From Candidatus Glassbacteria bacterium (GTDB lineage: Bacteria > Gemmatimonadota > Glassbacteria > GWA2-58-10), in contig JAFGTO010000244.1 of assembly GCA_016934095.1 (NCBI GenBank), positions 1 to 12,398 on the forward strand: 12,398 bases of DNA, in the 5' to 3' direction. The notes below the pieces were generated by a model that saw nothing but the letters and a program-made list of their open reading frames with translations, was not told where the DNA came from and did not search any database. Positions 3 through 10,665 of this stretch are shown piece by piece (position 1 is the first letter of the stretch; each line of letters opens with the position of its first letter). Position numbers and translations under genes: made by a program.

Positions 3-1916
3 TTCCGCAGCAACCGGAAGAACCTCGACCGGATGCTGTACAGCAAGGGAGCCGCCCTGATGGAGTCGGTGCTGCACGACGCTGAGAACGCAGTGCTTGC
101 AGAGCGCGAGATCTCGGAACAGCTCGCCTCCCGCCTGGCGGATAACGCCAGGTACGCCCTGATGCTGGCCGACCGGGGAGCGCAGGCCGGGCGGTCGCTG
201 GCAGCCGCGGCCGCGGAGAACGGGCTGGTCCGCCTGGAGGTGTACGGTCCGGACGGGGGACTGATCGCAACTAGCGACCCGCGCGGCTCACCCGGAATGC
301 TGCCCGCATCCCTGGATGGCCTGGCCGCCGGGGATGAGCCGCTTATCAGGCTGATCCAGGACCCGGCGGGATCCGGGAACGAGCTCCTGGCGGCCGCCGT
401 GCGGGGTGGGGACGGCCGGGCGGGAGTGGCCTATGCCCTGTCGGATGAGCTCTTCGCGCTCCAGCGCCGGCTGGGAATCGGCCTGATCCTCGACGACCTC
501 TCCGCAGTGGAGGGGGTGGCTTACGCCGTGCTCCAGGACACTCTGGGGATCATCGCGGCCTCGAGCGACGTGGTGGAAATCGGCAGTATCGGCAAGGACC
601 CGTTCTTCCCCCTGGCCGCCGGGGAGATCAAGGGGCGCCGCCTGGATTTCTTCGGCGAGGAGGTCTACGAGCTGGCCGCCCTGTTCCAGCTCGGCGGCGA
701 GAGTTTCGGTTACCTGAGGGTCGGGCTCTCGACTGAAGAAGTACGCTCGATTGCCGAGCTGGACCGCAAGAGGTTCGGTTTCGGCATGGCGGTGCTGGCC
801 GTGCTGGCCGCGGTGGCTGTGCTGCTCTACTTTTTCCGCCTCCGCCACCTGCACCTGGAGCAGGAGCACTCGCGCATCAAGAGCTTCTCGGACAGCGTGC
901 TCGAATCCATGGGCGATGCGGTGATTGTCGCCGACCGGGACGGCAGGGTCCTGCTGGTCAACCGTGTCGCCGAAAAGCTATGCGGCACCGACCGGCCGCC
1001 CCTGCCGGGCCGCATGCTCTCGGAGGTGGCTCCCGGCCTGGCGGAAAAGCTCGGAAGCCTGGACACAGATGAGCCGCTGGTCTTGGAGACCGAGCTGCCC
1101 CGGCCCGGCTCTGCAGGACCGCTGCCCGTGCTGGCCACCGCCTCACCCTTATTGGTTGCCGGCAGCCGCTACACTACGGTTATCCTGCGCGACCTGACCG
1201 ACCGCAAGCGCGCCGAGGAGCTGGCCCTGCGCAACGAGAAGTACCAGGTCATGGCCGAGGTCTCGGCCTCGGTGGCCCACGAGATCCGCAACCCGCTCAA
1301 CGCGATCGGGATGAATGTCCAGCGCCTCAAGATGGAGTTCACCCCGCAGGAGGGGAGCCGGGGAGAATACGAGGAGTTCATCGAGATAATCCGCCGCGAG
1401 GTGGAGAGGATCAACGGGATAGTCGAACAGTACCTGACCCTGGCCCGTTTCCCCGGGCCGAAAAAAGAAATGGCGAGGATCGACAGGCTGCTGGCCGATA
1501 CCCTGCAGTTTTTCGCTGCCGAGCTCGCCGGGCGGCGGATCGCGGTGAAAGCGGATATCGCGCCCGCCGGGCCGTTCCCTTTCGATCCCGGGCAGTTGAG
1601 ACAGGTTTTCACCAACCTGATCAAGAACGCCGCCGAAGCCATTGAAAGCGAGGGGACCCTGCTGGTGGCCGGACGCCCGCTGCCGGGGTACTACCAGGTC
1701 TCCGTGCAGGACAGCGGCCCCGGGATCCCCGCAAGCGTGCGGGACAAGGTTTTCGAGCCGTTTTTCAGCACCAAGCAAAGTGGGCTGGGTCTTGGATTGG
1801 CCATTGTCCAGCGCATTGTCGCCGAGCACGGGGGTAATATATCCCTGGAAAGCAGCGGCCGGCCGGGGACCACTTTCGTGGTCACCCTGCCTGCAGACAA
1901 GGAGGATAAAACATGA
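3..1916 (+). CDS. Sensor histidine kinase (periplasmic sensor domain, TM, PAS, HisKA, HATPase_c); 5' end probably truncated by the window edge
   Basis: Frame is open from base 3 and the first in-window Met is at 33. There is no RBS before 33 and no N-terminal TM, so the true start is probably upstream. TM segment FGFGMAVLAVLAAVAVLLYFF. PAS-like SVLESMGDAVIVADRDGRVLLVN. H-box SASVAHEIRNPLNAIGMNVQRL. N-box LIKNAAEAI. G-boxes QDSGPGIP and GLGLGLAIVQRIVAEHGG. Strong GC3 codon bias. Confidence 0.85.
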   Translation, partial: FRSNRKNLDRMLYSKGAALMESVLHDAENAVLAEREISEQLASRLADNARYALMLADRGAQAGRSLAAAAAENGLVRLEVYGPDGGLIATSDPRGSPGMLPASLDGLAAGDEPLIRLIQDPAGSGNELLAAAVRGGDGRAGVAYALSDELFALQRRLGIGLILDDLSAVEGVAYAVLQDTLGIIAASSDVVEIGSIGKDPFFPLAAGEIKGRRLDFFGEEVYELAALFQLGGESFGYLRVGLSTEEVRSIAELDRKRFGFGMAVLAVLAAVAVLLYFFRLRHLHLEQEHSRIKSFSDSVLESMGDAVIVADRDGRVLLVNRVAEKLCGTDRPPLPGRMLSEVAPGLAEKLGSLDTDEPLVLETELPRPGSAGPLPVLATASPLLVAGSRYTTVILRDLTDRKRAEELALRNEKYQVMAEVSASVAHEIRNPLNAIGMNVQRLKMEFTPQEGSRGEYEEFIEIIRREVERINGIVEQYLTLARFPGPKKEMARIDRLLADTLQFFAAELAGRRIAVKADIAPAGPFPFDPGQLRQVFTNLIKNAAEAIESEGTLLVAGRPLPGYYQVSVQDSGPGIPASVRDKVFEPFFSTKQSGLGLGLAIVQRIVAEHGGNISLESSGRPGTTFVVTLPADKEDKT

Positions 1917-3268
1917 AAAGCCACCGTATCCTGGTGGTGGAGGACGAGGAGAACCAGCGCCGCACCCTGGCCGGTTTCCTGAGGAAAAAGGGTTACCGGA
2001 CCGAAGAGGCCCCTTCCGGGGAGGCCGCCCTGGAGCTTGTCCGCAAGCACCTTTACGACCTGGTCCTGACCGACCAGAAAATGGGGGGCATCGGCGGCCT
2101 GGAGCTGCTCAGGGAGGTCAAGGCCGCCAACCCGGAAATCGAGGTGGTCCTGCTGACCGCCTTCGGAGACCTCCGCTCCGCGGTCCAGGCGGTCCGCCAG
2201 GGCGCTTTCGACTACCTGGCCAAGCCGGTGGACCTGGAAGAGCTGGAGCTGACCCTCGAGCGGGCCCTGGAGCGCAGGCAGCTCGTGGTGGAAAACCGGA
2301 TGCTTCGCGAGTCGCTCGGCGAGCGGCAGAGCTTCGAGGAGATCATCTCCGTCAGCGATGCCATGGAGTCTGTGCTCAACATGGCTTCCCGGGTGGCCCG
2401 GGTCGACTCTCCCGTGCTGATCACCGGGGAGTCCGGCACCGGCAAGGAGATGGTGGCCAAGACGATCCACCAGGCCAGCGTGCGCAGGGACCAGCCTTTC
2501 GTGGCGGTAAACTGCGCCGCCCTGAACCAGAACCTCATCGAGAGCGAGCTGTTCGGCCACGAGAAAGGGGCCTTCACCGGCGCCATCCGTCAGCGCCAAG
2601 GCAAACTCGAGTCCGCCGACAGGGGGACCCTGTTCCTCGATGAGCTCGGGGAGATCAGCCCCGAGATCCAGGTTAAACTGCTGCGCTTTCTCCAAGAGCA
2701 CTCGTTCGAGCGGGTCGGCTCGGACCAGGTGCAGCAGGCGGACGTGCGCCTGATCGCCGCTACCAACCGCGACCTGGAGGCAGCCATCCGTCAGGGCGAT
2801 TTCCGCGAAGATTTCTACTACCGGATCAACGTGGTCAATATCCAGATCCCGCCCCTGCGCTCGCGCAGGGAGGACATCCGCCCGCTGATTGATTTCTTCC
2901 TGCAGAGAAACCGCGAGCGTCTCGGGCCGAAGACCTTCTCCAGGCAGGCGCTCGACTCCCTGCTGCGCTACGATTTCCCGGGAAACATCCGGGAGCTGCA
3001 GAACGTGGTCGAGCGGGCCATGGTGCTGGCCAGGAACGAGGTGGTCGACCTGGCCGACCTGCCCCCCTCGGTCACTGCCAGACAGGATAACTTTCCCGGT
3101 GTCCGCGAAATCGGCGGCTCGCTCACCGAGGAGATAGAGAACCTGGAAAGGCGCATGATTACCGCCGCCCTGGAATCCTGCGACAAGGTTCAGGTGCGGG
3201 CCGCGGAAAAGCTGGGAATCACGGAAAGGAACCTGCGCTACAAGATGAAAAAGCTGGGAATCAAATAA
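1913..3268 (+). CDS. Sigma-54-dependent response regulator, NtrC/AtoC/ZraR family (REC + AAA+ sigma-54 activator + Fis-type HTH)
   Basis: Start ATG 1913 overlaps the kinase stop TGA 1914-1916 (ATGA coupling), with a GGAGGA RBS at 1901-1906. REC domain with phospho-acceptor LVLTDQKMGG. Walker A GESGTGKE. GAFTGA motif ESELFGHEKGAFTGA. Walker B/arginine-finger region. C-terminal HTH AAEKLGITERNLRYKMKKLGI. Confidence 0.9.
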   Translation: MKSHRILVVEDEENQRRTLAGFLRKKGYRTEEAPSGEAALELVRKHLYDLVLTDQKMGGIGGLELLREVKAANPEIEVVLLTAFGDLRSAVQAVRQGAFDYLAKPVDLEELELTLERALERRQLVVENRMLRESLGERQSFEEIISVSDAMESVLNMASRVARVDSPVLITGESGTGKEMVAKTIHQASVRRDQPFVAVNCAALNQNLIESELFGHEKGAFTGAIRQRQGKLESADRGTLFLDELGEISPEIQVKLLRFLQEHSFERVGSDQVQQADVRLIAATNRDLEAAIRQGDFREDFYYRINVVNIQIPPLRSRREDIRPLIDFFLQRNRERLGPKTFSRQALDSLLRYDFPGNIRELQNVVERAMVLARNEVVDLADLPPSVTARQDNFPGVREIGGSLTEEIENLERRMITAALESCDKVQVRAAEKLGITERNLRYKMKKLGIK

Positions 3269-3300: not shown

Positions 3301-3340
3301 TTCGACCAATTGGTCGAACAACTCTCGACAAAAATGTCGA
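3301..3340. promoter_or_regulatory. Tandem palindromes, candidate enhancer (UAS) sites for the adjacent NtrC-type activator
   Basis: Perfect 18-bp palindrome TTCGACCAATTGGTCGAA at 3301-3318. Second dyad TCGACA-AAAA-TGTCGA at 3325-3340. Centres lie about 160 and about 140 bp upstream of the predicted sigma-54 start site. An AT-rich tract between them and the promoter (3341-3440) is typical of a bending region. Confidence 0.45.
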
Positions 3341-3446: not shown

Positions 3447-3461
3447 TGGCACCGTTCTTGA
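3447..3461 (+). promoter_or_regulatory. Sigma-54 (-24/-12) promoter candidate
   Basis: TGGCACC-GTTC-TTGA matches TGGCACG-N4-TTGCW. The GG and GA(C) elements have the exact 10-nt spacing, with only the -12 C replaced by A. It lies about 75 bp upstream of ATG 3537, directly downstream of a sigma-54 activator gene. Confidence 0.55.
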
Positions 3462-3536
3462 TTAAGGTAAGGGTGCGCGCATCGATTTTATCTTTCGCAG
3501 TATCAGCTTACCTTTAAAGAGCAGAGGAGGTGCCGG

Positions 3537-4388
3537 ATGAAAACCCTGAAAATTCTGCCGGTAATCACTTTTATCGGCGCATTGATGACTTTGAATCCCG
3601 GACTGTACGCCCAGGATGCCGATGACGCAGCCGCGGACGATGGGGCCGCTGTAGCGACGCCCCTGGGCGGAGCCTACCGCCACGGCATGAGGGATGTCGG
3701 GTTCCGCGGCTTTACCGACGAGGACGGCAACGGGCTCAACGACTATCTAGAGGACTCGGACGGCGACGGGGTGGTCAACGCCCACGACCCGGACAGCGAC
3801 CTTTATCGCGGCGAGCCGGGTACGGCTCTGGGACGCGGCCTGGGCTTCGTGGATGAGGACGGCAACGGGCTCAACGACTATCTAGAGGACTCGGACGGCG
3901 ACGGGGTGATCAACGCCCACGACTCCGACAGCCCGCTCTACCGCGACCCCCGCGCCAGGGGCGCTTTCGGGCGCGGCCTGAGCTTTGTGGATGAGGACGG
4001 CAACGGGATCAACGACCGTCTCGAGGACTCGGACGGCGACGGGGTGATCAACGCCCACGACCCGGACAGCCCGCTCTACCGCGACCCCAGCGCCAGGGGC
4101 GTTTTCGGGCGCAGGCTCCGCTTCATCGATGAGAACGGCGACGGTGTCAGCGACTGCCTCGAGGACTCGGACGGCGACGGGGTGATCAACTCCCTCGACC
4201 CCGACAGCCCGCTGTATCGCGGCAGCGCGGCCGGGAACACGGTCAGGGGCGCACGCCTCGGCTCGGCCGGCAAGACTGTCATGCAGCGCGGGTCGGCTTT
4301 CAGCGGACAGTCGCGCTCTACCGGAAGGGCAAGAGTGAGAACGCCCGGGAGCTGCACAACCGCTCCCGCCGGCAGCGGCAGCAATTAA
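3537..4388 (+). CDS. Secreted acidic repeat protein with tandem DxDxDG (thrombospondin type 3 / EF-hand-like) calcium-binding loops
   Basis: RBS AGAGGAGG at 3524-3530. Signal peptide MKTLKILPVITFIGALMTLNPGLYA|QD. About 3.7 copies of a 45-46 aa unit EDGNGLNDYLEDSDGDGVINAHDPDSPLYRDP.ARGAFGRGLSFVD. Each unit carries two back-to-back 12-residue loops, DEDGNGLNDYLE and DSDGDGVINAHD, fitting DxDxDGxxDxxE/D. Confidence 0.8.
   Translation: MKTLKILPVITFIGALMTLNPGLYAQDADDAAADDGAAVATPLGGAYRHGMRDVGFRGFTDEDGNGLNDYLEDSDGDGVVNAHDPDSDLYRGEPGTALGRGLGFVDEDGNGLNDYLEDSDGDGVINAHDSDSPLYRDPRARGAFGRGLSFVDEDGNGINDRLEDSDGDGVINAHDPDSPLYRDPSARGVFGRRLRFIDENGDGVSDCLEDSDGDGVINSLDPDSPLYRGSAAGNTVRGARLGSAGKTVMQRGSAFSGQSRSTGRARVRTPGSCTTAPAGSGSN
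3720..4217 (+). repeat. In-frame tandem DNA repeat, 135-138 bp unit, about 3.7 copies, inside CDS 3537-4388
   Basis: Units begin at 3720, 3855, 3993 and 4131 with GAGGACGGCAACGGG...GAGGACTCGGACGGCGACGGGGTG(A/G)TCAACGCCCACGAC. Copies 1-3 are nearly identical at the nucleotide level and copy 4 is more diverged. Confidence 0.85.
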
Positions 4389-4405
4389 CGATTCTGCAGT
4401 TCTGC

Positions 4406-4437
4406 AGCCCGGGAGCCTCGTACCCGAGGCTCCCGGG
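4406..4437 (+). terminator. GC-rich hairpin (14-bp stem, 4-nt loop) between the two repeat-protein genes; possible intra-operon attenuator or partial terminator
   Basis: GCCCGGGAGCCTCG-TACC-CGAGGCTCCCGGGC is a perfect inverted repeat 18 nt after stop 4388, preceded by the direct repeat TTCTGCAG x2. It is followed by an A-rich tract (AGATAAAACAAACAAAA) rather than a U-tract, so it is not a canonical intrinsic terminator. Confidence 0.35.
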
Positions 4438-4464
4438 CAGATAAAACAAACAAAATCACGGATC

Positions 4465-5136
4465 ATGGGTAAAAGAATTACATACGGCGCGGCAGTGGCG
4501 ATTTTTCTTTTTTGCGGCACTCTTTCCGCACAGCAGGAAAAGGCCCGGCCGGAGACTCGGAAATCAACGGTCCAGCCCGGCGGGTCCGCAGCCCAAAAAG
4601 CAGCCGACAATAAAGAACCCCAGACGCCTGTCGCCGTATTCGGCTTCCAGGACCGGGACCGCGACGGCAAGAACGACCTGTTCCGGGACGCCGACGGCGA
4701 CGGGATCAACGATATCACCAAGAAACCCTACCCTCACAAGTTCAAGTTCGCAGATGAGGACGAGGATAAAATCAACGACTTGTTCGTGGATGCCGACGGC
4801 GACGGGGTGAACGACCTTGAAGTCAAGTTTATCGATGCCGACAGCGACGGGATCAACGACAATATCATCGATGTCGACAAGAACCATATCAACGACATCA
4901 CCGGCCTGCGCTATACCAGCAAGTCCCTGCGGGGGTACAAGTACGGTTTTATCAAGGAGGAGCGCCTGCTGATGATGCGCGGCTTCATCGATGAAGACGG
5001 GGACGGGATCGCGGATGCACCCCGGGGCATGATGCTCAGAAAAGGCATGCGCGACCGGATTATCGACCGGGACGGCGACGGGATCGACGACAGGAGGGAG
5101 ATGATGCGCAAATTCAGACCAGGACCCAGGAGATAG
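4465..5136 (+). CDS. Secreted paralogous DxDGDG-loop repeat protein (degenerate Ca-binding loop repeats)
   Basis: Signal peptide MGKRITYGAAVAIFLFCGTLSA|QQ. Loops DRDRDGKND, DADGDGINDI, DEDEDKINDL, DADGDGVNDL, DADSDGINDN, DEDGDGIADA, DRDGDGIDDR. Codon composition is more AT-rich than the first paralog. Ends TAG 5134-5136, 3 nt before the next start. Confidence 0.75.
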   Translation: MGKRITYGAAVAIFLFCGTLSAQQEKARPETRKSTVQPGGSAAQKAADNKEPQTPVAVFGFQDRDRDGKNDLFRDADGDGINDITKKPYPHKFKFADEDEDKINDLFVDADGDGVNDLEVKFIDADSDGINDNIIDVDKNHINDITGLRYTSKSLRGYKYGFIKEERLLMMRGFIDEDGDGIADAPRGMMLRKGMRDRIIDRDGDGIDDRREMMRKFRPGPRR

Positions 5137-5139
5137 GCA

Positions 5140-6405
5140 ATGAAAAAATTCGGCTTGCTAGGCCTGATACCGCTTTTCCTCTGGGCCGGGATGCTCCGGG
5201 CCCAGAAAGAAGTCAGCGTGGGGACCCACATGCTGGCTGACGACAATATCTTCCGCAACCACACAGGACAGGGCGACTTTGTCGCTGTACCTTACGCCGA
5301 CCTAGGCTACCAGTTCAGTCCCGGCCAGGACACGGAGACACTGGACCTGTTCTACCTAGGCTATTCAGGGCAGTTTTTCCTTTTCCGCGAGCTGAGCCGG
5401 AGGGACTTCTCCGTGCACGGCTTCTCCGCACACTACAACCACCTCTGGCCCGAGTCGCGCAACCTGCTCGCTGTCGGCGGCAAGGTGGAAACCAGGCTCA
5501 ACCCGGAAGACTACAAGTATTTCAACTATACCTCGGGCGGATTTTACCTGAACTACAAGAGATACCTCAGGGAAGACCTGATGCTGCTGGCCGGGTACAA
5601 CCTTACCGGCAAGAACTTTTCCGAATTCCCGGAGTTCAATTACCTGGAAAACATCTTTTCCATCCAGACCAGCCTGTTCCTGCAATCCAGGACCACCCTG
5701 CGGTTTTCCGCCAATTACTACCACAAGAACTACCTCAACAGTATCTCTACTCTGGACTCGGTTTTTGTCGAGCCGCCCCCGGTTTCCGGGCCCATGCCCG
5801 GCATGGGCTATGGATACGGCCGCGGGATGTTCCTCAGGAACCTGTTCCCGGAGGATGTTGGCGAAGGTTTCTACTCGTACCGCATGCGTGCCGATGAATT
5901 CCCCAGCACCGACCAGTTCAAGCTGGGTTTCACAGTGGCCCAGGGCCTGGCCGAGGGCACGGGGATCACCGCGGGCTACACCGCCCGGCTCAACCCCCGC
6001 AACCGCAACCGCTACCTGTCCAACCTCGGCGAATCGGTGCTGAACAATGAAGAGCTTTTCGACGACCACTACAGCTACCTGGGCCACGAGGGCACTTTGC
6101 AGCTCAAGCAAATGCTGCCTGCAGAGTCGATACTGACCCTGATGTTCACCGTGCGCAGCCGCCGTTTCAGCGACCGGCCAGCCCTGGACCTCGAGGGCTA
6201 CCCGCTGCCCTCCGGAGAGGACCGGCGGGACAGGGCTGTGCTTTTCGAGGCCGAGTTCACCAAGCGGCTCAGGCCCGGCATTTCCTGGATCACCGACAAC
6301 CTCGAGCTCTCGGTCGGGTTCGGCCTGGGCAGCAACAGCTCGAACGACCAGTATTACGATTTCAACGACAAATATTTCATTTTCGCCCTGGAAAAAGCCT
6401 TCTAG
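5140..6405 (+). CDS. Putative outer-membrane beta-barrel protein (no heme motif)
   Basis: RBS AGGAGA at 5126-5131. Signal peptide MKKFGLLGLIPLFLWAGMLRA|QKE. High Tyr/Gly/Asn/Ser content with alternating aromatic/hydrophobic patterning typical of amphipathic beta-strands. C-terminus ...YFIFALEKAF ends in Phe as in Bam-dependent OMPs. Co-transcribed with the two repeat proteins. Confidence 0.7.
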   Translation: MKKFGLLGLIPLFLWAGMLRAQKEVSVGTHMLADDNIFRNHTGQGDFVAVPYADLGYQFSPGQDTETLDLFYLGYSGQFFLFRELSRRDFSVHGFSAHYNHLWPESRNLLAVGGKVETRLNPEDYKYFNYTSGGFYLNYKRYLREDLMLLAGYNLTGKNFSEFPEFNYLENIFSIQTSLFLQSRTTLRFSANYYHKNYLNSISTLDSVFVEPPPVSGPMPGMGYGYGRGMFLRNLFPEDVGEGFYSYRMRADEFPSTDQFKLGFTVAQGLAEGTGITAGYTARLNPRNRNRYLSNLGESVLNNEELFDDHYSYLGHEGTLQLKQMLPAESILTLMFTVRSRRFSDRPALDLEGYPLPSGEDRRDRAVLFEAEFTKRLRPGISWITDNLELSVGFGLGSNSSNDQYYDFNDKYFIFALEKAF

Positions 6406-6563: not shown

Positions 6564-6669
6564 TTAACAGAGCCGCAAAAATGACCTCCGGGCCCGCCCT
6601 CTCGAGCCCGGCGCCAAATACTTTCAGGCGAAGACATCCTTGAACCTGCCCATCAGAGAGGAGTTTTCC

Positions 6670-7038
6670 ATGAGCAGTACTTATCATGAACCATCCCAGG
6701 AGCTGCCTCCGGAAGTCCGCGATACCCATCGCGCACTGGCGAGCCTGATCGAAGAGCTGGAGGCTATCGACTGGTATAACCAGCGGGCCTCTCTCACCAC
6801 CGACCCGGAGCTCAAAGAGATTGTCCAGCACAACCGGGACGAGGAAATCGAACATGCGGCCATGGCCCTGGAATGGCTGCGCAGGAGGATCCCCAAATTC
6901 GACGAGGAACTGAAGACCTACCTGTTCTCTTCCGGCCCCATTACCGAAATAGAAGAAGCCCTGGCAAAAGAACCTGCTGAAAACGACGCGCCGGCCCCGG
7001 GCAGCCTGGGAATCGGCTCGCTGCGAAAGGAGAGCTGA
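6670..7038 (+). CDS. Encapsulated ferritin-like protein (EncFtn) with C-terminal encapsulin cargo-loading peptide
   Basis: RBS AGAGGAG at 6654-6660, 9 nt before ATG 6670. The track start at 6640 is a TTG with no RBS, so 6670 is preferred. EncFtn signature EELEAIDWYNQRA...DPELKEIVQHNRDEEIEHAAMALEWLRRR (metal-binding Glu/His residues). C-terminal tail ...PGSLGIGSLRKES matches the GSLxIGSLK-type encapsulin targeting peptide. The stop lies 2 nt before the shell gene. Confidence 0.85.
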   Translation: MSSTYHEPSQELPPEVRDTHRALASLIEELEAIDWYNQRASLTTDPELKEIVQHNRDEEIEHAAMALEWLRRRIPKFDEELKTYLFSSGPITEIEEALAKEPAENDAPAPGSLGIGSLRKES

Positions 7039-7040
7039 CG

Positions 7041-7841
7041 ATGAGCGACATTCTGCGACGTTCACTGGCTCCGCTGACGGAAGCCGCCTGGAAGGAAATC
7101 GACAGGACGGCCTCGAACATCCTCAAAGCAAGCCTCACCGGGCGCAAGCTGGTTGACTGCGACGGGCCCCACGGCCTGGAGCTGGGTGCGGTGAACCTGG
7201 GCCGCCTGGCAATCCCCGAGAAACATAAGAGGGCGGGTGTAAGCTGGGGCGTGCGCGAGGTGCTGCCGCTGGTGGAGTTACGGGTACCCTTCCAGCTCGA
7301 CCAGATGGAGCTGGACTCGATCTCCAGGGGCTCGAAGGATGTCGACCTGGGTCCGCTGGAAAAAGCCGCCAGGGCAGTGGTCGATTTCGAGGAATCCGCA
7401 ATCTACAAAGGCTTTCCGGAGGCCAGGGTCCAGGGCATACTCAAAGCCGCAAAACACGCCCCGCTCAAGATCCCCGCCGCACGCGAAGACTGCCCCAAGG
7501 CCGTGGCCGAGGGGATCAAGCTGCTGTCCGAGGCGGGAATCGAGGGGCCTTACGCGCTGGTCCTCTGCCTGGAGTGCTACCATGAGCTGATCGCCACCGC
7601 CAAGGGATACCCTACTTTCCGGGTGGCGGAGCGCCTGGTGGAAGGCGGGATATTCTACAGCAGCGCCCTCAAGGGCGGCGTGCTGCTGTCCGTGCGCGGC
7701 GGAGATTTCGAGCTGACCCTGGGCCAGGATATCTCCATCGGCTTCTCGGGCTGCACCGCGGACAAAGTGGAGCTCTATTTTGCCGAGTCTTTCACTTTCC
7801 GCGTGCTGGAGCCGCTGGCCGCTGTCGAGCTGAAACCCTGA
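7041..7841 (+). CDS. Family 1 encapsulin nanocompartment shell protein (HK97 fold; Linocin_M18 family)
   Basis: RBS AAAGGAGAG at 7026-7034. Sequence is collinear with the T. maritima encapsulin: LRRSLAPLTEAAWKEID, GRKLVDCDGPHG, WGVREVLPLVELRVPFQL..ELD..RG..DVDLGPLE, GIEGPYALV, RGGDFELTLGQDISIGF, ESFTFRVLEP. The 266-aa length is typical. Confidence 0.9.
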   Translation: MSDILRRSLAPLTEAAWKEIDRTASNILKASLTGRKLVDCDGPHGLELGAVNLGRLAIPEKHKRAGVSWGVREVLPLVELRVPFQLDQMELDSISRGSKDVDLGPLEKAARAVVDFEESAIYKGFPEARVQGILKAAKHAPLKIPAAREDCPKAVAEGIKLLSEAGIEGPYALVLCLECYHELIATAKGYPTFRVAERLVEGGIFYSSALKGGVLLSVRGGDFELTLGQDISIGFSGCTADKVELYFAESFTFRVLEPLAAVELKP

Positions 7842-8111: not shown

Positions 8112-9473
8112 ATGCGATCAGCCCGTAAAGTCTTAGCTGTCGTTGTCATTGGCACGGTTGTGGCGGGAGCGGGCTTACTGGCCCAGGTCAAGGCAGGCGA
8201 CGCCGCCCATGGCACCAGGCAGTACGACCAGTATAAAAAACCCAAGTTCTGCGGTACTTCCTGCCATACCGACTTCTATCGCCAGTGGCGCCAGGAGATG
8301 CACTCCCAGGCCTATGTCCACCACTGGGACGAGATCGAGTATTTCAAGCTGGCCGTGCCCCACGCGGAAAAAGACCCGGCCGTGGCCGGGGTCAGGGATG
8401 GCTGTAATGGCTGCCATGCGCCGGTGTCTTTCCTGGCGGGCGACACCCCTCCGCCCAGGCCCGAGGAAAACAGCCGGGCCAACGAAGCTGTCACCTGCGA
8501 CCTGTGCCATACTATCACCGGTTTCGAGTCAGACACTCCCCACAACTTCAACTATTATTCCGAGCCGGGGAACGTGAAATACGGGCCCAGGGGCGGGGTA
8601 ACCTCTCCTGAGCACGTGATCGAGGTCAGCAAGTTCCTGCCTTCCGCAGAGTTCTGCGGCACCTGCCATAACGAGAAAAGCCCTTACGGGGTATGGGTCA
8701 AATCGACCCACCTCGAGTGGAAGGAAGGGCCTTACGCAGCCGAGGGAGTCCCCTGCCACGACTGCCACATGCCAAGGGCCGAGGGCAGGAGGGCCTCGAT
8801 GGGTAAGGCCTACCCGGACATCCGTCAGCACCTGTTCCACGGCGCTCACGACAACGGCAAGATCAGGGGCACGGTGGAGCTGCGCATCCACCCGGATATC
8901 GATGAGACCGAGCCGGGCGAAAAAGTGGTCTTTACCGTGGTGCTCTTCAACCAGAAAGCCGGCCACAAGTTCCCCACCGGCTCGGTGGAGGACCGGATTG
9001 TCTGGCTGCATGTCGAGGCCACCGATGCCCAGGGCAAGGTCTATCACCTGCCGGTGGACCCCAAGGGTTTCGAGGGGGAAGAGTATACGATCGCCCGGGA
9101 CGTCCTGGCCTACCAGGACATGGGCATAGCGCTGAACGACCCCGGCTTCCAGGGCGTGCAGCGGGATGGGGTCCCGGTGGGAGACCGTATTTTCCGCATG
9201 CCCTATTTCGACCCCCAGGGCCGGATGACGATCCAGCAGTGGAACACCAAGAGCCTGGGTGTAGACTACCGGATACCCCCCAGGGGTACCAGGGTGGAGA
9301 CTTTCTCCTTCAGCCTGCCGTTCGAGGTCGCCCCGGGCAGGATGACTGTCGAAGCCACGCTCAACTACAGCAAGCTGGTCAAACCGGTGGCAGAGCTGCT
9401 CGAGGTGCCGCCGGATGAAACTGAAACAGTTGTGGTCAACGAGCATTCTACCGTAATCAACGTATTCGACTGA
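8112..9473 (+). CDS. Multiheme c-type cytochrome (five heme-binding motifs) with a C-terminal heme-free, probably beta-sandwich, domain
   Basis: Signal or anchor peptide MRSARKVLAVVVIGTVVAGAGLLAQVKA. Heme motifs CGTSCH (CX3CH), CNGCH, CDLCH, CGTCH and CHDCHMP. The GVPCHDCHMPRAEG segment resembles the NrfA-family CxDCHMP heme, but the family's distal heme is missing. The last about 200 aa are Cys-free. Confidence 0.85.
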   Translation: MRSARKVLAVVVIGTVVAGAGLLAQVKAGDAAHGTRQYDQYKKPKFCGTSCHTDFYRQWRQEMHSQAYVHHWDEIEYFKLAVPHAEKDPAVAGVRDGCNGCHAPVSFLAGDTPPPRPEENSRANEAVTCDLCHTITGFESDTPHNFNYYSEPGNVKYGPRGGVTSPEHVIEVSKFLPSAEFCGTCHNEKSPYGVWVKSTHLEWKEGPYAAEGVPCHDCHMPRAEGRRASMGKAYPDIRQHLFHGAHDNGKIRGTVELRIHPDIDETEPGEKVVFTVVLFNQKAGHKFPTGSVEDRIVWLHVEATDAQGKVYHLPVDPKGFEGEEYTIARDVLAYQDMGIALNDPGFQGVQRDGVPVGDRIFRMPYFDPQGRMTIQQWNTKSLGVDYRIPPRGTRVETFSFSLPFEVAPGRMTVEATLNYSKLVKPVAELLEVPPDETETVVVNEHSTVINVFD

Positions 9474-9483
9474 AGAAGGAAAA

Positions 9484-10665
9484 ATGAAAAAAAAGACGTT
9501 TTACACCCTGGTCTTTTCCCTGGCGGCCGCCGGTCTGTGTTCCATCTTTACGGCCGAGTCCGCCTATGCTGTCCCGGCTTTCGCCAGGAAATACCGGCTG
9601 AGCTGCAAGACCTGCCACCAGCCGATCCCCAGGCTGAAACCTTATGGGGATGAATTCGCCGGCAACGGTTTCGTGCTCACCGACCAGGAAGCGCCCAGGT
9701 ATTTTGTCGAGACCGGGGACGACGAGCTCTCGCTGATCCGGGATTTCCCCATCGCCGTGCGCCTGGAAGGGTTCATCAACTACAACGACGTGGCGGGAAA
9801 AAGGTCGGACTTCAACACTCCATACCTGTTGAAGCTGCTCTCCGGCGGGGCCCTGACCAAAAACATCGCCTATTACTTCTATTTCTACATGGATGAGAGA
9901 GGAGAGGTGGCCGGTGTCGAGGACGCCTATGTCATGTTCAACAACCTGCTGGGAGTCGACCTGGATATCTACGCAGGCCAGTTCCAGGTCTCCGACCCCC
10001 TGTTCAAGCGGGAGCTGCGCCTGACCCTGGAGGACTACCAGGCCTACAAGTCCACTCCGGGCCGCTCGGGGATAAACCTGACCTATGACAGGGGTATCAT
10101 GGTAACTTACGGGTTGCCCAGCGGCACCGACCTGATTTTCGAGGTGGTCAACGGCAACGGCTTGAGCGAGGCGGACGAGGACAAGAACTTCGACTCCGAC
10201 AGGTACAAGAATTTCATGGGACGCATCTCCCAGGATGTCGGTAAATACCTGCGCCTGGGTGTGTTCGGCTACACCGGCCGGGAAAAGAGCGCCGGCCGGC
10301 TGAACCAGGCCTGGCTGGCCGGTCCCGACCTGACAGTGTCAATCAACGAAAAGTTCGAGCTGAACCTGCAGTATGTCGAGAGAAGGGACACCAACCCTTA
10401 TTTCCTCAGCTCCGGCTACCGGGACCTCAAGACCAGGGGCGCGCTCGGCGAGATGGTGATCGCCCCCCGGGGCAGCGACGGCAAGGTCTACCTGGTGGGG
10501 CTGTTCAACTGGACAGACTCGGACGACAATTCGGAGGATTTCAAGAGCCTGACCGGTCATCTCAGCTACCTGCTGCGCAGGAACATCCGTCTGGTCGGCG
10601 AGGTAACCCACAACTGGGCCAATGATACCAACCGCCTCGGCGTGGGTTTTGTCTCGGCGTTCTAG
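9484..10665 (+). CDS. cyc2: Cyc2-like fused monoheme cytochrome c-porin (outer membrane; candidate Fe(II) oxidase or extracellular electron conduit)
   Basis: RBS GAAGGAAAA, start 11 nt after the cytochrome stop. Signal peptide MKKKTFYTLVFSLAAAGLCSIFTAESAYA|VP. A single CKTCH heme motif lies within 15 residues of the mature N-terminus inside PAFARKYRLSCKTCHQP, which matches the conserved N-terminal cytochrome module of Cyc2. The remaining about 340 aa are rich in Tyr/Gly/Asn beta-strand patterning and end GVGFVSAF (terminal Phe), consistent with a porin barrel. The family assignment is from memory, not from a search. Confidence 0.6.
   Translation: MKKKTFYTLVFSLAAAGLCSIFTAESAYAVPAFARKYRLSCKTCHQPIPRLKPYGDEFAGNGFVLTDQEAPRYFVETGDDELSLIRDFPIAVRLEGFINYNDVAGKRSDFNTPYLLKLLSGGALTKNIAYYFYFYMDERGEVAGVEDAYVMFNNLLGVDLDIYAGQFQVSDPLFKRELRLTLEDYQAYKSTPGRSGINLTYDRGIMVTYGLPSGTDLIFEVVNGNGLSEADEDKNFDSDRYKNFMGRISQDVGKYLRLGVFGYTGREKSAGRLNQAWLAGPDLTVSINEKFELNLQYVERRDTNPYFLSSGYRDLKTRGALGEMVIAPRGSDGKVYLVGLFNWTDSDDNSEDFKSLTGHLSYLLRRNIRLVGEVTHNWANDTNRLGVGFVSAF

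Follow-up and report, generated by a model that had tools for sequence, protein, structure and literature searches.

Does the tandem repeat inside a predicted secreted-protein gene of Candidatus Glassbacteria gain and lose whole units, and what might those units do in the protein? The window that raises this question is the entire 12,398-nt contig JAFGTO010000244.1 of a Candidatus Glassbacteria metagenome-assembled genome (MAG), and the gene, at positions 3537 to 4388, encodes a protein of 283 amino acids (aa). An earlier note on this DNA had described near-identical in-frame repeats of 135 to 138 bp in the gene and had proposed a length-variable locus that is hazardous to assemble, with paired Ca-binding loops in its product and a true copy number that may exceed the 3.7 copies seen. 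As read from its own sequence and from those of its relatives, the locus is probably a four-unit in-frame array that undergoes turnover of units, encodes a binder of divalent cations, and is under sigma-54 control; this account as a whole is the one that we favor.

The repeat itself was found as described. Tandem Repeats Finder placed the array at 3720 to 4221 (period, 138; 3.7 copies; 86% matches; score, 666), and a second repeat search returned four copies spaced 135, 138, and 138 nt. The unit lengths (135, 138, 138, and 138 nt) are each divisible by three, and the open reading frame (ORF) that contains the units is intact (Table 1). Codon-position GC of this ORF is 0.67/0.50/0.82, and GC at third codon positions (GC3) in neighboring genes is 0.75 to 0.86; because its GC3 is neighbor-like and homologous proteins exist, the plus-strand frame was taken as the coding frame. 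An antisense ORF (3882 to 4721) was rejected as coding, since its GC3 of 0.65 is below its own value at first positions, and neither Rfam nor tRNA scans of the window gave a match. What did not hold was the near-identity of copies 1 to 3. Over full units, DNA identity is 83% between units 1 and 2 (u1 and u2; 112/135 plus a 3-nt indel), 89% between u2 and u3 (123/138), and 77% between u1 and u3, and any two window units are at least 15 substitutions apart. Among u1 to u3, near-identity is limited to the first 78 nt, which encode two Asp-rich loops and contain 4 to 6 differences, compared with 9 to 27 differing positions in the 60 nt that encode the linker. Unit 4 is the most diverged (69 to 73% identity to the other units), and it is closest to the terminal unit of a related locus, L003, rather than to any neighbor in its own array.

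Copy number was compared among genomes, as the earlier note had suggested, by counting units in the closest homologs (47 to 66% identity to the window protein). Two units were found in P0008 and P0029; three in P0009 and L002; four in the window, L001, L003, and L123; five in L084, L085, and L086; and seven in L004. For 28 of 38 units the nearest DNA neighbor lay in the same genome; the exceptions were mostly terminal units, and these paired with terminal units of other genomes. The inner units of the window are likewise closer to one another than to their positional counterparts in the nearest relative, and several genomes have residues of their own repeated across units (ISDYLEDADGDGVVNAHD three times in L001, INMLDPDSD in L004, and DDDNDG...SKYYR in L085). 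The best identity between unit cores within an array was 93 to 98% in the clade of the window, compared with roughly 61 to 85% in distant members. Moreover, the type of unit that has been amplified varies by lineage: L001 has three u1-type units, L003 has two of the inner type (u2 and u3, 97.8% identical in the core), and the window has a hybrid unit 2. We interpret this pattern as the result of unequal exchange, by which units evolve in concert except at the edges, where they apparently escape homogenization.

Pairs of loci from the same species indicate where such change may be concentrated. Three pairs, all with diverged units, had equal copy numbers; only the pair with long exact repeats, L001 and L002, differed, which suggests that whole-unit change is concentrated where units have long exact tracts in common. 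Because L001 and L002 differ, because relatives range from 2 to 7 units, and because units are most alike within a genome, we conclude that whole-unit change occurs in the family. Length variability is thus well supported for the family and, by comparison with these relatives and from the mosaic structure of unit 2 described below, plausible for the window locus; the support comes from the relatives and not from the window's own species.

The L001/L002 pair deserves scrutiny. The two contigs, which come from sister Joint Genome Institute (JGI) samples (3300083231 and 3300082323), have no mismatches in 6,000 nt of upstream and 780 nt of downstream flank, and the step from four units in L001 to three in L002 is a clean loss of exactly 138 nt whose junction lies inside a 131-nt exact repeat, the tract common to u1 and u2 of L001. 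The chances that this difference is a real polymorphism or an assembly collapse are about even. If it were purely an artefact, copy-number differences would be found between species only, and we place this alternative just short of an even chance. Flanks that are identical over 6.8 kb and a junction within so long an exact repeat are what a collapse would produce: in short-read de Bruijn assembly, a 131-nt repeat is at or above the largest common k-mers and is barely spanned by 150-nt reads. The L002 contig is also shorter and more fragmented (7.9 kb versus 43.6 kb). However, a clean whole-unit difference is just what unequal recombination yields, and even if the pair were set aside, the range of 2 to 7 units between species and the concerted evolution of units would still need real turnover.

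The assembly hazard is accordingly real for the family, as the 131-nt repeat of L001/L002 illustrates, and modest in the window, where the longest exact repeat is 54 nt. Three close-relative contigs of 7.7 to 17.8 kb (L006/L092, L090, and L016) end inside the array; contig ends were rejected as a test of the hazard, since ~3 of 12 contigs compared with roughly 1 expected is not a significant excess. Arrays of 4 to 5 units are found in relatives with very long records, which we infer to be long-read assemblies: contigs of 1.16 Mb (L084), 0.39 Mb (L097), and 3.6 Mb (L098) and a chromosome record of 6.5 Mb (L099). Because megabase-scale and short contigs have the same range of units, systematic undercounting is not indicated.

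Two further observations concern the genes of the family rather than their units. In L028 (1678 to 2250 of a 2.4-kb metagenome contig), a frameshift in the Gly/Lys-rich linker that joins units 1 and 2 divides the homolog between two frames; the cause is an error of sequencing or assembly, or else the gene is a pseudogene. Other loci, e.g., in KSB1 and Ignavibacteria MAGs, hold two paralogous repeat-protein genes each (L025, at 4240 and 7117; L089, at 4669 and 5884; L124, at 5947 and 6650), and the presence of paralogous pairs in one locus implies that the family expands by whole-gene duplication too.

What the units would do depends on the protein in which they lie. Its layout is a predicted signal peptide, four units of ~46 aa, and a basic Gly/Arg tail; the hydrophobic N-terminal segment is kept in homologs, which also have Gly/Arg-rich tails with R or K as the last residue. 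The array has a pI of 4.05 and is 21% Asp. A consensus drawn from 200 distinct units of the family, G-F-V-D-E-[DN]-G-D-G-I-N-D-x-x-x-D-x-D-G-D-G-[IV]-x-N-x-x-D-P-D, consists of two successive 12-residue Asp-rich loops, and the window units follow it with the loop DEDGNGINDRLE, the loop DSDGDGVINAHD, PDSPLYR, and a Gly/Arg linker that ends in G-F-V. There are eight Dx[DN]x[DN]G motifs in the protein, two per unit, compared with 0.28 expected from composition-preserving shuffles. D or E occupies loop positions 9 and 12, and in each unit the second loop conforms to the 12-residue loop pattern of EF-hands. In no fewer than 12 structural contexts, Ca2+ is bound nearly identically by the Dx[DN]xDG linear motif, which shows a strong bias toward proteins that are secreted or located in the periplasm or at the surface (Rigden, Woodhead, Wong and Galperin 2011, PMC3123361). 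At the level of the motif, the paired Ca-binding loops proposed in the earlier note are therefore a reasonable reading. We propose that the mature protein would bind Ca2+ or another divalent cation polyvalently, in the periplasm or outside the cell, and that its binding capacity or reach would scale with the number of units.

This reading does not extend to any known family: no match supports membership in a known Ca-binding family or fold. Pfam and NCBIfam scans of the 283-aa protein returned no family, and Pfam at E ≤ 10 yielded noise only. The window protein resembles the Dx[DN]xDG class in its eight motif copies, its predicted secreted or periplasmic location, and its acidic loop positions 9 and 12; however, that class is a motif and not a homologous family, and in the window the motifs are fused pairs in a unit of ~46 aa with no recognizable host fold. 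In thrombospondin (TSP) type 3 repeats, which have little secondary structure, the chain is wrapped around Ca2+ ions. The tandem DxDxDGxxDxxD loops of TSP type 3 (PF02412) and of its bacterial counterpart (PF18884) are similar to those of the window, where the first loop, DEDGNGINDRLE, is hydrophobic at position 7 and has Asp at position 9. In contrast, the window protein has neither disulfide-forming cysteines nor a Pfam match, and its unit length and Gly/Arg linkers differ; neither TSP3 family was listed at E ≤ 10, and the protein, with only two Cys, lacks the conserved cysteine pairs of PF02412. EF-hand and dockerin type I proteins are approached by the fit of the second loop, DSDGDGVINAHD, to the EF-hand loop pattern and by the best, nonsignificant matches in the PDB, which are calmodulin loops. 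Here, too, there are differences: the models of the window protein are without flanking helices and there is no Pfam match at threshold. For EF-hand (PF00036 and PF13499), Pfam gave no match at E ≤ 10, and the full PROSITE pattern was unmatched. For Dockerin_1 (PF00404), the score was 8.5 bits (cutoff, 22.9; E = 3.2) and the dockerin pattern was unmatched, so membership in dockerin type I is not supported. A profile built from 48 unit sequences found only calmodulin Ca loops and a teneurin-4 segment, KDNDGDGLVDCMDPD, in the PDB, none significantly (E ≥ 0.035). A phmmer match of the whole protein to PDB entry 6wvs (E = 0.025) was rejected; it is a designed four-fold-symmetric TIM barrel, and the match is an artefact of the ~46-residue period and not homology.

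Formally, the Asp-rich units could be something other than Ca2+ sites, serving instead to bind other metals or mineral surfaces or to form a disordered polyampholyte scaffold or chaperone in the envelope. We regard this as possible but rather doubtful. In its favor, there is no family or fold match, and the AlphaFold models contain little regular structure (in a two-unit fragment modeled with AlphaFold2, the predicted local distance difference test [pLDDT] score was 70 to 77 in the loop cores and <50 in the linker). The linkers and the tail are Arg/Gly-rich, with a tail pI of 12. The surroundings of the gene could also be taken to indicate metals: in this clade the cassette of neighboring genes (Table 1) adjoins a multiheme cytochrome, an outer-membrane-like protein with CxxCH, and, in the window, an encapsulated ferritin, and its putative sigma-54 two-component control is like that of metal-stress systems (against the ZraR model the regulator reaches 421 bits, short of the cutoff). 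However, the spacing of D-x-[DN]-x-[DN]-G and its acidic positions 9 and 12 match the classical geometry of Ca2+ coordination (PMC3123361), and the second loop of every unit fits the EF-hand loop pattern; we thus continue to favor binding of Ca2+ or another divalent cation.

Returning to the array of the window, unit 2 is a mosaic of its neighbors, u1-like at unit positions 4 to 57 (19 to 33 in a narrower delimitation) and 124 to 138 and u3-like between. The u1/u3-informative sites in unit 2 are clustered (8 runs among 32 sites; runs test by permutation, P = 0.003). The longest exact tract, common to u1 and u2, holds a synonymous CTA codon and a Tyr codon that both set these units apart from u3; the next-longest exact tracts in the array are 39 nt and 33 nt. 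Tracts of 33 to 54 nt are longer than the minimal stretch of homology commonly cited for RecA-dependent recombination but fall far short of the near-identity of units in classical variable-number tandem repeats (VNTRs). Alternatively, the array could be static in this lineage, the likeness of units being due to selection on the Asp-rich loops, without ongoing expansion, contraction, or conversion. Such an explanation would fit the concentration of identity in the loop-coding 78 nt with diverged linkers, the equal copy number in 3 of 4 same-species locus pairs, and the old, diverged units of distant family members, and part of the third-position identity is inflated by codon bias. Indeed, synonymous-site identity was downgraded as proof of recent duplication, with ~80% third-position identity even for the diverged u4, and because codon bias is strong it is by itself weak evidence of recent exchange. 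A static array nonetheless appears improbable, given the exact tract with its two distinguishing codons and the clustered informative sites of unit 2, the greater likeness of the inner window units to each other than to their positional counterparts, and the differences in unit number and type among close relatives (an amplified u1 type in L001 and a doubled inner type in L003).

Slightly more improbable still is that the window is underassembled, with more than four units in the genome and near-identical copies collapsed by a short-read assembler: relatives do have near-identical adjacent units (the 131-nt tract of L001 u1/u2 and the 97.8% identity of L003 u2/u3), two assemblies of one population (L001/L002) mismatch by one unit, the L006/L092, L090, and L016 contigs stop within the array, and a 7-unit relative (L004) exists, but the window units are at least 15 substitutions apart with no exact repeat longer than 54 nt, any copy still hidden would need to be one more, almost perfect duplicate of a single unit, megabase-scale relatives have 4 to 5 units, and the window contig is continuous across the array. 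That contig crosses the array unbroken with flanks of 3.7 kb and 8 kb; no two of the four units are the same, exact repeats reach 54 nt at most, and unit-specific sequence anchors the assembled path all along. The sequenced population thus most likely carries four units, and there was no positive sign of the additional copies that the earlier note had allowed for.

Comparison with relatives indicates that unequal recombination and gene conversion between units alter the array in this Glassbacteria/Gemmatimonadota-like clade. Inner units are homogenized within each genome and edge units drift, and unit number shifts by whole units with the reading frame intact. The window array would be a moderately aged one, its units diverged yet still capable of recombination via the 33- to 54-nt exact tracts, and far less prone to slippage or collapse than relatives with 65- to 131-nt exact repeats. 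In-frame VNTRs are known from bacterial genes for surface and secreted proteins, such as the 60-bp repeats of Treponema pallidum arp and those of group B Streptococcus alpha C/Rib. The arp and alpha C/Rib repeats are near-identical, their strain-to-strain variation has been documented experimentally, and they are troublesome for short-read assembly. The window locus resembles these genes in its head-to-tail units with lengths that are multiples of three, whole-unit gain and loss, and concerted evolution. It differs in that u1 to u3 are 77 to 89% identical, in that the variation is between species plus one ambiguous same-population pair, and in having no link to host immunity. The locus is thus an in-frame repeat of a known kind in an uncharacterized family and, in this respect, fairly ordinary.

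Table 1. Features of the window (positions in the 12,398-nt contig). Locus counts are from tblastn searches of the window neighbors against all fetched related loci.
Feature	Position	Strand	Evidence or remark
Sensor histidine kinase (PAS/HisKA/HATPase)	33-1916	+	Pfam/NCBIfam; kinase in 55 loci
Sigma-54-dependent response regulator (receiver/sigma-54-activator/HTH_8)	1913-3268	+	Sigma54_activat, E = 5.9e-73; in 58 loci
Candidate activator-binding palindrome TCGACCAATTGGTCGA	3302-3317	+	Read from sequence
Candidate activator-binding palindrome TCGACAAAAATGTCGA	3325-3340	+	Read from sequence
Sigma-54-type -24/-12 element TGGCACCGTTCTTGAT	3447-3462	+	TGGCAC-N5-TTGA; 75 nt before ATG
TGCGCGCA, with GCGC core	3463-3480		~15 nt downstream of promoter element
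Ribosome-binding site GAGGAGG	3524-3530		Read from sequence; ahead of the repeat gene
Secreted repeat protein gene, 283 aa	3537-4388	+	ORF list, translation; exact match to MBN2289019.1, hypothetical protein JXQ83_06765
Predicted Sec signal peptide MKTLKILPVITFIGALMTLNPGLYA, followed by QD	3537-3611	+	Read from translation; cleavage site (before QD) inferred
Unit 1, 135 nt, 45 aa	3717-3851	+	DEDGNGLNDYLE-DSDGDGVVNAHD-PDSDLYR plus linker
Longest exact intra-array repeat, 54 nt	3720-3773	+	Identical to 3855-3908
Unit 2, 138 nt, 46 aa	3852-3989	+	u1/u3 mosaic
Unit 3, 138 nt, 46 aa	3990-4127	+	
Unit 4, full register, 138 nt	4128-4265	+	Core only, 4128-4220 (93 nt, 31 aa)
Gly/Arg/Ser-rich basic C-terminal tail, 55 aa	4221-4385	+	Composition; pI 12, zero acidic residues
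Perfect 14-bp GC-rich hairpin, without U-tract, between repeat gene and ORF2	4407-4438	+	dG -38.4 kcal/mol, z -7.35 (4386-4464)
ORF2, 223 aa, signal peptide, second secreted DxDGDGxND-repeat protein	4465-5136	+	ORF2-like in 82 loci
ORF3, 421 aa, signal peptide, end ...EKAF, outer-membrane-like	5140-6405	+	ORF3-like in 43 loci
Encapsulated-ferritin cargo gene (EncFtn-like)	6640-7038		E = 1.2e-40
Family 1 encapsulin shell gene	7041-7841		E = 1.4e-83
Multiheme c-type cytochrome	8112-9473		Weak ExtKL-like and NapC/NirT matches
393-aa protein, signal peptide	9484-10665		One CKTCH heme-binding-type motif near N terminus; C-terminal ...GFVSAF as in outer-membrane barrels

The 268-nt intergenic region upstream of the repeat gene carries the elements on which the proposed sigma-54 control rests. 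Two TCGAC-N6-GTCGA sites lie roughly 105 to 145 nt upstream of the -24/-12 element, and in 7 aligned close loci both sites and the TGGCA/TTG of the promoter element are invariant and the remaining spacer is not. The sequence TGGCAY-N5-YTGM occurred within 300 nt upstream of the repeat gene in 36 of 50 loci, compared with a background of 0.015 per 300 nt. These observations suggest that the adjacent two-component activator, acting at the two TCGAC-N6-GTCGA sites, would drive sigma-54 transcription of the repeat gene, and that the repeat protein would be made together with the second Asp-rich repeat protein and the outer-membrane-like protein. Just downstream of the promoter element, the GCGC core within TGCGCGCA is also invariant in the 7 close loci; it could be the region of the transcription start or an operator. 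Between the repeat gene and ORF2, hairpins of other sequence are found in L003, L084, L123, and L086 at the same place as the hairpin of the window, and because these four relatives have differing hairpins at one position, the structure is conserved and the sequence is not. The hairpin may be a terminator, an attenuator, or an mRNA stabilizer that determines how much repeat protein is made relative to the products of the downstream genes.

The cassette of kinase, sigma-54 activator, repeat protein, second Asp-rich protein, and outer-membrane-like protein is found across several little-studied groups, namely, Glassbacteria/Gemmatimonadota, KSB1, Calditrichota, Marinimicrobia, Aminicenantes, and Desulfuromonadales. 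The repeat family is rare: of 1.84 billion cluster representatives, 215 match it at E ≤ 1e-3, 45 at E ≤ 1e-10, and 5 at E ≤ 1e-30. ORF2 encodes single loops with short linkers (FRDADGDGINDI, FVDADGDGVNDL, FIDADSDGINDN, FIDEDGDGIAD, and IIDRDGDGIDD), and neither ORF2 nor ORF3 had a Pfam, NCBIfam, or PDB sequence match. ORF2 resembles the 440- to 460-aa lipoprotein-like matches P0011 and P0012 from Desulfuromonadales. Six distant relatives (P0088, P0094, P0100, P0115, P0116, and P0118) are secreted proteins of 130 to 165 aa made up of FVDEDGDGVCD single-loop repeats, and each has a precomputed match to Pfam PF27309. A full-text literature search for the motif strings of the family and for PF27309 found no paper; the repeat family is uncharacterized and has no annotation.

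Farther downstream in the window, the encapsulin pair (cargo and shell genes) sits between ORF3 and the multiheme cytochrome, a position at which it is found in 0 of the 163 related loci; for this reason, the pair looks like an insertion specific to the lineage of the window. The pair formed by the cytochrome and the 393-aa protein, the latter without a sequence relative in the PDB, recurs in L001, L016, L035, L085, L086, and L146 and may be a porin-cytochrome-like module.

Among known systems, the arrangement of the cassette recalls ZraSR-ZraP, a sigma-54 two-component envelope metal-stress module, in that genes for a kinase and a sigma-54 regulator adjoin a gene for a small periplasmic protein with a -24/-12-type promoter element. 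In contrast with that system, the scores in the window fall well short of the equivalog cutoffs (760 for ZraR and 479 for ZraS; the regulator has 421 bits), and the effector is unrelated to ZraP. We tentatively raise the idea, without expecting it to be borne out in full, that the cassette could be an undescribed envelope system that senses an external cation or metal and exports polyvalent Asp-loop proteins, the capacity of which would be tuned by gain and loss of units over evolution and perhaps within populations.

Several points weigh against the account that we favor. A second assembly of the window's species was not found, no locus of >67% identity was found in the metagenome and genome collections, and the 90% cluster of the window protein has a single member. 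Within the family, the L001/L002 difference could wholly be an assembly artefact, and within the array, codon bias (GC3, 0.82) inflates third-position identity, to the extent that u4 and u3 are still ~80% identical at these positions. AlphaFold2 confidence was low to moderate, with a pLDDT of 48.6 for the whole protein (from a 10-sequence alignment; this model was unusable) and 66 for the two-unit fragment. Finally, the -12 element of the clade is TTGA and not the canonical TTGC; GC is present there in many other loci, and the -24 GG is in place.

For the family, these results mean that gene length and unit number are not to be trusted from one short-read assembly, because one population gave 3- and 4-unit versions and several contigs break in the array. 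As judged from comparison among genomes, they also document clear concerted evolution in a coding mini-array whose secreted product changes by whole units. Of greatest interest is the uncharacterized, putatively sigma-54-controlled cassette that extends across several candidate phyla: if it is true that its proteins bind cations, the cassette would represent a new inducible envelope response in uncultivated lineages.

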